Below are positions 5,098 to 16,661 of a stretch of DNA of 64,000 bases, piece by piece. Position numbers and translations under genes: made by a program. A model generated the notes under the pieces. The model ran no database searches. It had not been told where the DNA came from and worked only from the letters and a program-made list of their open reading frames with translations. How positions within the stretch are numbered: the first letter of the stretch is position 1; every line of letters starts with the position of its first letter. This DNA comes from an uncultured Chlamydiae bacterium (lineage in GTDB: Bacteria > Chlamydiota > Chlamydiia > Chlamydiales > JAJFMA01), in the NCBI GenBank assembly GCA_963713615.1, contig CAVQMM010000001.1, positions 416,001 to 480,000 of the forward strand, given 5' to 3'.

Positions 5098-5805
5098 ATG
5101 GCTTCTACAAAAATTCGTAAACCTTATGTTTCTCGAGCTTTGCCACCAAAGGCGATTGAATATCACCAGGGGAAGATGGACCTGGTTTTTCGCCCTTTTG
5201 AAGCTTATGATGCGCCAAAATGTCAAAAAGTCCTGAAAGACACTATTCCTTACCTTTACAATTATATGTTATGGCCGAACCAGAAATGGGATCTAAAGGA
5301 CTGCCTTCATTGGGTGGTTGAACGCCACGCGGTGTACTATGCTGGCTCTGAATTTGAGTGGGGAATGTTTGATGCCCGTAACGATGAGCTGCTCGGGGTC
5401 GTTGGCATCATGCCCTGCACACCCTGGAATCCAGATTGCTTTGAAATCGCCTATTGGACGGCTCTTAAACATATGAAGAAGGGGCTGGCAACGGTCGCCA
5501 CACAAGTTGCCACGGCCGTTGCGTTTGAATGCCTAGGGGTCACGCGTATGCAGGCAGGCTGTCTAAAGGAAAATCTTGCGAGCCGACGTGTCATCGAAAA
5601 ATGCGGTTTTGTTTATGAGGGTGAACTCCGAGCGTTTTATCCTCCACCAACAAAGCAGCAGCTCCAAAAAGTTCCCATAGTCGCTAGGGATCTCTTATAT
5701 GCTCTGCTTCCTTCAGACTGCCAGGATCTACCCTGGTATGCATCTACTCTGAAGGCTGTATCGATTGTTCCATTGTGTGGTGACAAATTTCAGCTTTCCT
5801 ACTAA
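5098..5805 (+). CDS. GNAT acetyltransferase, RimJ/RimL family
   Basis: EIAYW, KKGLAT, ENLASRRVIEKCGFVYEG motifs; start moved from 4936 because that extension lies in a repeat. Confidence 0.8.
   Translation: MASTKIRKPYVSRALPPKAIEYHQGKMDLVFRPFEAYDAPKCQKVLKDTIPYLYNYMLWPNQKWDLKDCLHWVVERHAVYYAGSEFEWGMFDARNDELLGVVGIMPCTPWNPDCFEIAYWTALKHMKKGLATVATQVATAVAFECLGVTRMQAGCLKENLASRRVIEKCGFVYEGELRAFYPPPTKQQLQKVPIVARDLLYALLPSDCQDLPWYASTLKAVSIVPLCGDKFQLSY

Positions 5806-16661: not shown

Follow-up and report, generated by a model that had tools for sequence, protein, structure and literature searches.

Ankyrin-repeat effectors of Legionella that are delivered by the Dot/Icm system, LegA15/AnkD (PDB 7ew8, 7kj6) and AnkH (6mca), carry a protease-like domain with a helical cap. 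For AnkH, the catalytic triad is reported to be required in infection, yet protease activity was undetectable in vitro (PMC6712400), and LegA15 is reported to hydrolyse GTP by means of Cys361 and Gln356, mutation of its His having little effect (PMC9757750). SecA-like domains have been mentioned in effectors or giant proteins (PMC3482391, PMC8195603, bioRxiv 2023.11.21.568195), and giants from Omnitrophota and actinobacteria are described as combining a signal peptide, an N-terminal cysteine peptidase-like domain and a divergent SecA-like ATPase (bioRxiv 2023.11.21.568195). Chlamydial proteins CPAF, CT311 and CT795 are described as leaving the cell via Sec and type II secretion and reaching first the lumen of the inclusion and then the cytosol (PMC6717882). 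The DUF3638 family, which is already catalogued and well conserved, has been named as a microsporidian gene family (PMC5423893); a search of the openly available full-text literature yielded, in the titles and abstract openings listed, neither a described function for DUF3638 proteins nor a measured activity for any member, and nothing on DUF6606 or the family accession numbers.

The window analysed here is a stretch of 64,000 nucleotides (positions 416,001 to 480,000 of contig CAVQMM010000001.1) from an uncultured Chlamydiae bacterium, for which a genome of 3.97 Mb on 3 contigs was searched; loci are given either as window positions or as genome coordinates (G000:C1). On its minus strand, positions 5802-16661 constitute a single intact frame of 3,619 codons with zero internal stops, and an artefactual or chance frame was ruled out by a GC content of 45.8%, which is window-like, and by collinear homologues. 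The encoded giant protein shares with other DUF3638 giants its size class and an above cut-off match to PF12340 (80.2 bits against 31, aa 2492-2710), which bears out the family assignment of the initial annotation. It differs from them in its signal peptide and private N-domain and it retains an intact triad, unlike an oomycete relative. The eukaryotic giants often carry DUF3645 and DUF6606 and neither is present here (no match to PF12359 or PF20255 at E <= 0.01); DUF3645 is also missing in 4 of the 5 other non-eukaryote-type relatives scanned, so that its absence appears typical of the bacterial branch. The motifs which the initial annotation had located, GWPGH, YNTG, PQRSGIC, MGSGKT and DEVD, all lie at the positions given there within the one frame, which also holds the later helicase-like motifs. 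The features, in window positions, are:

5802..16661, minus strand: whole gene of the DUF3638-family giant protein, 3,619 aa (open reading frame and Pfam)
16599..16661, minus strand: predicted Sec signal peptide, aa 1-21 (hydropathy and pattern)
16047..16598, minus strand: lineage-specific N-domain, aa 22-205 (shared within the genome)
15897..16046, minus strand: Lys/Glu-rich linker, aa 206-255 (sequence)
15120..15896, minus strand: region aa 256-514 (homologue search)
14082..15119, minus strand: aa 515-860, predicted cysteine-protease-like module of AnkH/LegA15 type, carrying a helical cap (model pLDDT 96.7, fold matches)
14748..14750, minus strand: His638, putative general base
14688..14690, minus strand: Asn658, putative third triad residue
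14427..14429, minus strand: Gln745, five residues N-terminal to Cys750, putatively part of the oxyanion hole
14412..14414, minus strand: Cys750, putative nucleophile, located where a helix begins in the model
9342..14081, minus strand: middle region, aa 861-2440, family-conserved (slice searches of relatives)
6672..9341, minus strand: predicted SecA-like superfamily-2 ATPase including DUF3638, aa 2441-3330 (model pLDDT 86.7, fold matches)
9015..9032, minus strand: Walker A MGSGKT, aa 2544-2549
8610..8621, minus strand: Walker B DEVD, aa 2681-2684
7767..8549, minus strand: predicted helical insertion that separates motif II from motif III, with a two-strand stem, aa ~2705-2965 (model secondary structure)
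7683..7694, minus strand: FSGT motif (sequence)
7167..7271, minus strand: motifs V (TTGSD) and VI (QAVWRLR)
6936..7055, minus strand: predicted helix of 40 residues that follows the second RecA domain, aa 3203-3242 (model; position of the SecA scaffold helix)
6555..6629, minus strand: acidic Glu/Gln tract, aa ~3345-3369 (inspection of relatives)
5805..6554, minus strand: C-terminal family domain, aa 3370-3619 (search of relatives)
63197..64000, minus strand: 3' end of a full-length paralog of 3,058 aa, G000:C1:479197-488376 (sequence match)

Our preferred reading, to which we would give slightly less than an even chance, is of a Sec-exported, host-acting protein in which an ATP-driven SecA-like polypeptide motor serves a cysteine-protease-like head, the sequence of events being export, threading and cleavage. 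The signal peptide would take the chain to the periplasm, from where release would occur by type II secretion or vesicles, by analogy with CPAF of C. trachomatis. It would then reach an ATP-holding compartment, either the lumen of a permeabilised inclusion or the host cytosol, where the motor would grip a target polypeptide and thread or unfold it, and the target would be presented to, or would open, the His638-Asn658-Cys750 site with cleavage of a peptide or isopeptide bond. Against proteolysis counts the fact that neither AnkH nor LegA15, the two structural neighbours of the head, is a proven protease, and a chain of ~400 kDa presents a hurdle both for the proposed type II secretion and for passage of the inclusion membrane. 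If the reading is true, a SecA-like motor operating off SecY, on the proteins of other cells, would represent a new kind of effector; moreover, the DUF3638 proteins of fungi, oomycetes, ciliates, microsporidia and giant viruses would acquire a testable function and the 'ubiquitinyl hydrolase' label of database annotation would be replaced.

A broader proposal, possible in our view but rather unlikely, is that the DUF3638 proteins are new-build single-chain ATP-dependent proteases, of which chlamydiae would deliver many copies to their hosts, with one Sec- or lipoprotein-exported branch that has spread to Oligoflexia, Myxococcaceae and Deltaproteobacteria. A SecA-derived motor, freed of SecY, would then thread targets into an AnkH-type cysteine site, with a superfamily-2 engine in the role of the AAA+ rings of Clp, Lon and the proteasome.

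The evidence for the head of the favoured exported motor-head protein derives from conserved residues and from a confidently predicted fold (pLDDT 96.7). GWPGH (aa 634-638, nt 14762-14748), YNTG (aa 657-660, nt 14693-14682) and PQRSGIC (aa 744-750, nt 14432-14412), all on the minus strand, provide His, Asn, Gln and Cys in the CE-like order that had been pointed out earlier. Among 263 dereplicated homologues (E < 1e-5, gaps under 35%), which were picked by a profile containing the triad residues such that all of the counts lean high and are partly circular, His is kept in 255, Asn in 251, Cys in 250 and Gln in 231, and the full His-Asn-Cys triad, the conservation of which the initial annotation had made a check of its proposal, is intact in 245; the next most conserved Cys column reaches 41. 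In the model, His opens one strand, Asn directly follows the strand after it and Cys is at the start of a helix (model residues 236-246), in agreement with the published account of AnkH (PMC6712400).

Foldseek placed the head model with the LegA15/AnkH fold (E 1.2e-5 and 1.3e-4), and VIA-align gave Z 18.2 for LegA15 (253 aligned, rmsd 3.3) and Z 16.4 for AnkH (267 aligned, rmsd 4.1) with the next structure at Z 7.4; only these two stand out, and helical matches make up the remaining list. The head is therefore predicted to have the AnkH/LegA15 fold, and giant-virus DUF3638 members share it (E 1.6e-9). The motifs GH(A), (D/N)xG and Cys of the Legionella proteins are all present, with His-Asn-Cys as in LegA15 and with a Gln745-Cys750 spacing of five that equals that of Gln356 and Cys361, at an overall identity of 10-15%. 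In contrast to LegA15 and AnkH, with their ankyrin repeats and Dot/Icm delivery, the giant protein has a Sec-type signal and a tail of 2,700 residues with an ATPase, and it yields no Pfam match to ankyrin repeats, which do occur in one relative, P0220. Comparison of the head profile with a fungal DUF6606 protein and a Tetrahymena protein was not significant, and atlas searches, in which scores below 0.9 count as leads only, returned only unnamed or sub-0.9 leads both for the head and for aa 1340-2000. We predict that the cysteine site is live and of the AnkH/LegA15 type; for this site deubiquitination is one possibility among several, and the family may also reveal the true catalysis of this fold.

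The deubiquitinase originally proposed for this locus is unsupported, given that the nearest folds are LegA15/AnkD and AnkH and not SseL, ChlaDUB or YopJ, and that in-vitro assays of AnkH revealed no proteolysis and a GTPase function is reported for LegA15. A head that acts as a deubiquitinase or as an isopeptidase for ubiquitin-like modifiers, with the motor extracting or presenting ubiquitinated targets, is improbable in our estimation. It would fit with the His-Asn-Gln-Cys order of clan CE, which ChlaDUB1, SseL, XopD and YopJ share with the head together with the strand-strand-helix placement, with the likening of the AnkH domain to XopD (PMC6712400), with the many deubiquitinases of chlamydiae (PMC13720258), with a UBA domain in one oomycete relative, and with the database label 'ubiquitinyl hydrolase 1' on several relatives. 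That same UBA-bearing relative, however, lacks the head Cys, and the deubiquitinase section of the chlamydial review lists no such family (PMC13720258). Moreover, the 46 heads scanned gave zero matches to CE-clan Pfam families, nor was the head matched by any Pfam family; its sequence found nothing below E 0.06 among solved structures, and a wide fold search showed no canonical CE-clan protease among the 50 matches listed, although the clan may still apply. Ulp1/SENP-type enzymes carry a Trp after the catalytic His, associated with the Gly-Gly tunnel, and the Gln of SENPs precedes the Cys by six residues. In the heads, the His is followed by Ala in 191 of 263, by Ser in 29 and by Thr in 10, with Trp outside the eight commonest residues, and the Gln-Cys spacing is the shorter, LegA15-like one of five.

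It also seems quite unlikely to us that the triad serves a reaction other than proteolysis, namely LegA15-like hydrolysis of nucleotides or YopJ-like acyl transfer, in which case the head would accompany the motor as a switch or a modifier. The top structural match, with the same five-residue Gln-Cys spacing, is indeed a reported GTPase (PMC9757750), and triad effectors can be acetyltransferases, for example Ceg10 (PMC12773746); a YopJ-family cluster also appeared in the atlas search, with a score, 0.76, that makes it a lead only. However, when registered by offset to the triad, the Lys/Arg six after the Cys that is essential in LegA15 has not been retained, the commonest residues there being Met (62 of 263), Leu (45), Thr (27) and Ser (18); only 24 of the 263 heads have the Arg that follows Asn in LegA15. 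Furthermore, His and Asn are as conserved here as the Cys, while they were little needed in the LegA15 assay.

Turning to the motor, superfamily-2 motifs Q, I, II, III, IV, V and VI are all intact in the giant protein. Across 227 relatives the Gly and Lys of Walker A are invariant, Walker B retains its Asp in 225 and its Glu in all 227, the Gly of motif V is kept in 221, and the Gln and two Arg of motif VI (QAVWRLR, nt 7187-7167, minus strand) in 227; the six core residues (Walker A Lys, Walker B Asp-Glu, motif VI Gln-Arg-Arg) are jointly intact in 225 of the 227. The NTPase recognised at the outset is thus a complete superfamily-2 ATPase, and of its helicase-like description the motif set stands but the likeness is better read as SecA-like, SecA chains being the best 18 of the 50 fold matches listed.

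Those 18 matches came from realignment of the motor model to 952 chains and have Z 14.6-17.5 over 335-559 residues, the longest alignments (543-559 residues) being to SecA-SecY complexes; in Foldseek SecA was also best, at E 7.2e-10 against E 7.0e-6 for the best MDA5. The motor shares with SecA, its best structural match, the DEVD form of Walker B, and the predicted layout is that of SecA: two RecA domains, a clamp-type insertion and a scaffold helix. The insertion, helical and of ~260 residues in the model, sits between motifs II and III, a position which we take, from SecA topology, to be that of the preprotein clamp domain. At the sequence level, identity to SecA is 11-15% and not significant by profile, with an hhalign probability of 0.5% and an rmsd of ~5 in the structural alignments, and the giant protein has no match to a SecA Pfam family. 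The motif III and VI regions align by eye, gap-free, with the genome's own SecA. When segments of the motor were compared with 5,709 frames of the genome, SecA ranked fourth for the first segment (E 0.11, behind a PriA-like protein), first for the motif III segment (E 0.58) and outside the top 6 for the other two. Since SecA leads by structure with a modest Z margin and sequence profiles, which alone give no proof, do not single it out, SecA-like is the best structural reading of the motor and not proven descent. Unlike SecA, the motor is embedded in a giant protein and is found also in eukaryotes and viruses, and a SecA of its own is retained by the genome alongside it.

A nucleic-acid translocase or sensor of RIG-I/MDA5 or DEAD-box type, in which binding of RNA or DNA would release or activate the head, has a low probability in our assessment. 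The complete superfamily-2 motif set would suit it, as would weak Pfam ResIII and DEAD matches and an NCBIfam search that returned weak PriA matches only; RIG-I follows next after SecA in the realignment (Z 14.1, 338 aligned), and RIG-I, MDA5 and DbpA trail SecA at Z 13-14, a lead of SecA over RIG-I of ~3 Z units with rmsd near 5. SecA alignments, however, cover more of the model, spanning residues ~50-870 and reaching 559 aligned, against ~320-350 for those of RIG-I type, and the insertion of the model lies, as in SecA, between motifs II and III.

Within the proposed SecA-like motor and protease-like head, the two parts have not been conserved equally. The head lies N-terminal to the motor in every protein that has both, with a median gap of 1,620 aa (n=217). 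Of 241 long relatives that possess the ATPase, a set that is biased to head-positive rows, 233 also have the head. No head match was found in the fungal and ciliate relatives tested. Because some relatives have a lost or dead head and the ATPase motifs are almost invariant, the motor may be regarded as the fixed core and the head as a dispensable output. Slices of the middle region each match 33-170 of 309 collected relatives, and aa 3330-3619 match 170; the Glu/Gln tract near the C-terminus occurs in 10 of the 10 bacterial, oomycete, fungal and ciliate relatives inspected. The region aa 256-514 found no homologue within the genome nor among the 309 relatives.

The family is large, and each copy costs its carriers ~10 kb. 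In this genome there are 7 full-length copies, of which 4 begin with a signal-like segment and 3 do not, together with fragments. The tail at 63197, which had been taken earlier as a sign of a family, does belong to a full-length paralog: the frame 63197-64000 matches aa 3347-3617 of the giant protein (30% identity, E 1.3e-27), and the 3,058-aa protein has a signal-like start, an intact triad and intact ATPase motifs. The ordered head and motor motif sets arose in 0 of 5,000 shuffles of the giant protein, and among the open frames of the genome only family paralogs match the patterns, 5 for each; the patterns were written from the giant protein itself and these results exclude compositional chance, nothing more.

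A profile of 46 heads also picks up stand-alone heads, and the counts obtained with it include them. Of the 150 complete genomes scored in the order, with one more unscored, 85 gave a match; in the class to which an Oligoflexales genome belongs, 4 of 81 genomes did so, and among protein clusters formed at 50% identity the profile matched 4,101. The ATPase profile reaches Legionellaceae, Gammaproteobacteria and Myxococcaceae as well as proteins of Albugo, Tetrahymena and Podospora (E 1e-107 to 3.5e-62). Named carriers are mostly chlamydiae (Chlamydiae, Chlamydiales and Parachlamydiaceae records), Legionellaceae, giant viruses and eukaryotes, and a few further ones are records of Oligoflexia, Myxococcaceae, Deltaproteobacteria, Gammaproteobacteria and Verrucomicrobia. 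For the named genomes, a single-protein scan gave no match, and closer alignment yielded 38 loci.

Stand-alone His-Asn-Gln-Cys heads without the ATPase were also observed at G000:C1:2466319-2468211 and 1540774-1542690 (630 and 638 codons), and many genomes of the order have short head-only proteins like these. Incomplete or disrupted family copies, comprising a middle fragment and ATPase-only, head-only and frameshifted types, lie at G000:C1:132893-134139, 504512-508708, 1124209-1125147 and 2185702-2187845, and they suggest a rapid turnover of the family.

As regards export, hydropathy exceeds 1.5 in 19-residue windows only at starts 1-11 of the 3,619-aa protein, and from hydropathy and pattern the N-terminus is predicted to be signal-peptide-like, with cleavage likely after LEA; a lipobox-like IVSC is also present in this region. 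The description of the protein as exported is consistent with this start but it does not extend to most of the family, because hydrophobic signal-like starts, by a hydropathy rule set independently of the tree, were found in only 28 of 227 homologues. They are present in 21 of the 25 rows of two neighbouring branches against 7 of the 202 others, these groups having been drawn from the first tree itself and counted off the printed tree. In a tree of 60 rows, from which six long-branch or distant rows were dropped, the two signal branches (27 rows including two added loci) fall together with weak support (82/65; a quick 66-row tree gave 88), and this tree is compatible with a single origin of the signal-peptide branch. 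A mostly non-chlamydial arm of 15 rows, with support 100/96, contains Oligoflexales, Oligoflexia, Myxococcaceae and Deltaproteobacteria records, several of them with lipoprotein-like signals, and 5 of 6 further loci of the non-chlamydial class begin signal-like as judged by eye.

Within the signal-peptide branch the six ATPase residues are intact in 25 of 25 rows, and a later transmembrane-like segment occurs in 0 of 25. The periplasm is without ATP; given export and an intact ATPase, the final site should therefore be an ATP-containing compartment, and the retention of every ATPase motif in the branch points to work in such a compartment of the host. Relatives outside the branch have N-termini richer in Ser/Thr/Asn/Pro (0.317 for 197 proteins against 0.232 for 1,395 genome frames), a composition that weakly suggests type III delivery. 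The genome encodes GspE, GspF, two secretins and a FHIPEP (SctV-type) protein. An unusually long frame of 2,767 codons ending in a secretin domain was noted at G000:C1:3335497-3343800.

What is new here is the probably exported branch with an intact motor, together with the private N-domain. This domain of ~180 residues is common to the giant protein, one giant paralog and four signal-bearing proteins of the genome (G000:C1:1727242-1734731 and 3529836-3531776), and in the five other proteins it likewise begins directly after a signal-like segment. In these four signal-bearing carriers it is followed by a Lys/Glu-rich linker and then by a C-terminal domain, and one of the four has a weak match to the GT34 glycosyltransferases (E 0.0015). 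Among 7 genomes of the family the domain was confined to this genome except for one weak match in G004, and when 7,994 candidates with lengths of 329-2,000 aa were scored, only this genome's own proteins carried it. It may be a common address tag of exported enzymes.

That the SecA-like domain is instead a cis-acting exporter of the protein's own N-terminal part via SecYEG, with the head cutting the giant into pieces, is very unlikely: a signal peptide and a SecA-like domain do occur on one chain and such a role has been proposed for the SecA-like domains of giants (bioRxiv 2023.11.21.568195; PMC8195603), but the same motor is found in 199 of 227 relatives without a signal-like start and in eukaryotes and giant viruses, transmembrane segments are absent, unlike in Omnitrophota giants, and the genome has a normal SecA frame of 1,032 codons. 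A membrane-anchored form of the self-exporter was ruled out, as hydropathy revealed no transmembrane-like segments beyond the N-terminus of the giant protein. The Omnitrophota-type giants, as the preprint portrays them, have many transmembrane segments, C39 peptidases and no SecA scaffold (bioRxiv 2023.11.21.568195); here the head fold is a different one and a scaffold-type helix is predicted.

Some further observations were made on the window and the genome. At window positions 60524-62890 a unit of ~473 bp that bears inverted arms of 63 nt is repeated in tandem, in five nearly identical copies, and the element, which looks REP- or MITE-like, is also present at 53914-54554 and at ~17020-17080, the latter copy being just upstream of the giant gene; it is dispersed genome-wide, with 3,436 blastn segments obtained for window 53501-63200. 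Positions 54830-60707 comprise ~6 kb without long ORFs and have a 99.6-99.8% duplicate at G000:C1:2280303-2285872. A Chlam_OMP6 match was detected in the genome at E 7e-7, below cut-off, and in 0 of 14 control genomes; together with the mostly chlamydial named relatives, it suggests that the organism is probably an environmental chlamydia. Tandem paralogs of 747 and 736 aa (window 181-2424 and 2515-4725), with Ser/Thr-rich starts and no Pfam match, belong to a family of five members, including one at window 33722-35743, and are candidate type III effectors. A convergent gene for a GNAT acetyltransferase (window 4936-5805) has a 4-nt overlap with the stop of the giant gene, an IS66 element lies upstream of the latter at 17511-19719, and nearby genes encode a GH9 cellulase-like protein (20224-22935), a Ser/Thr kinase (23409-24878) and a histone-deacetylase-family protein (46397-47338).
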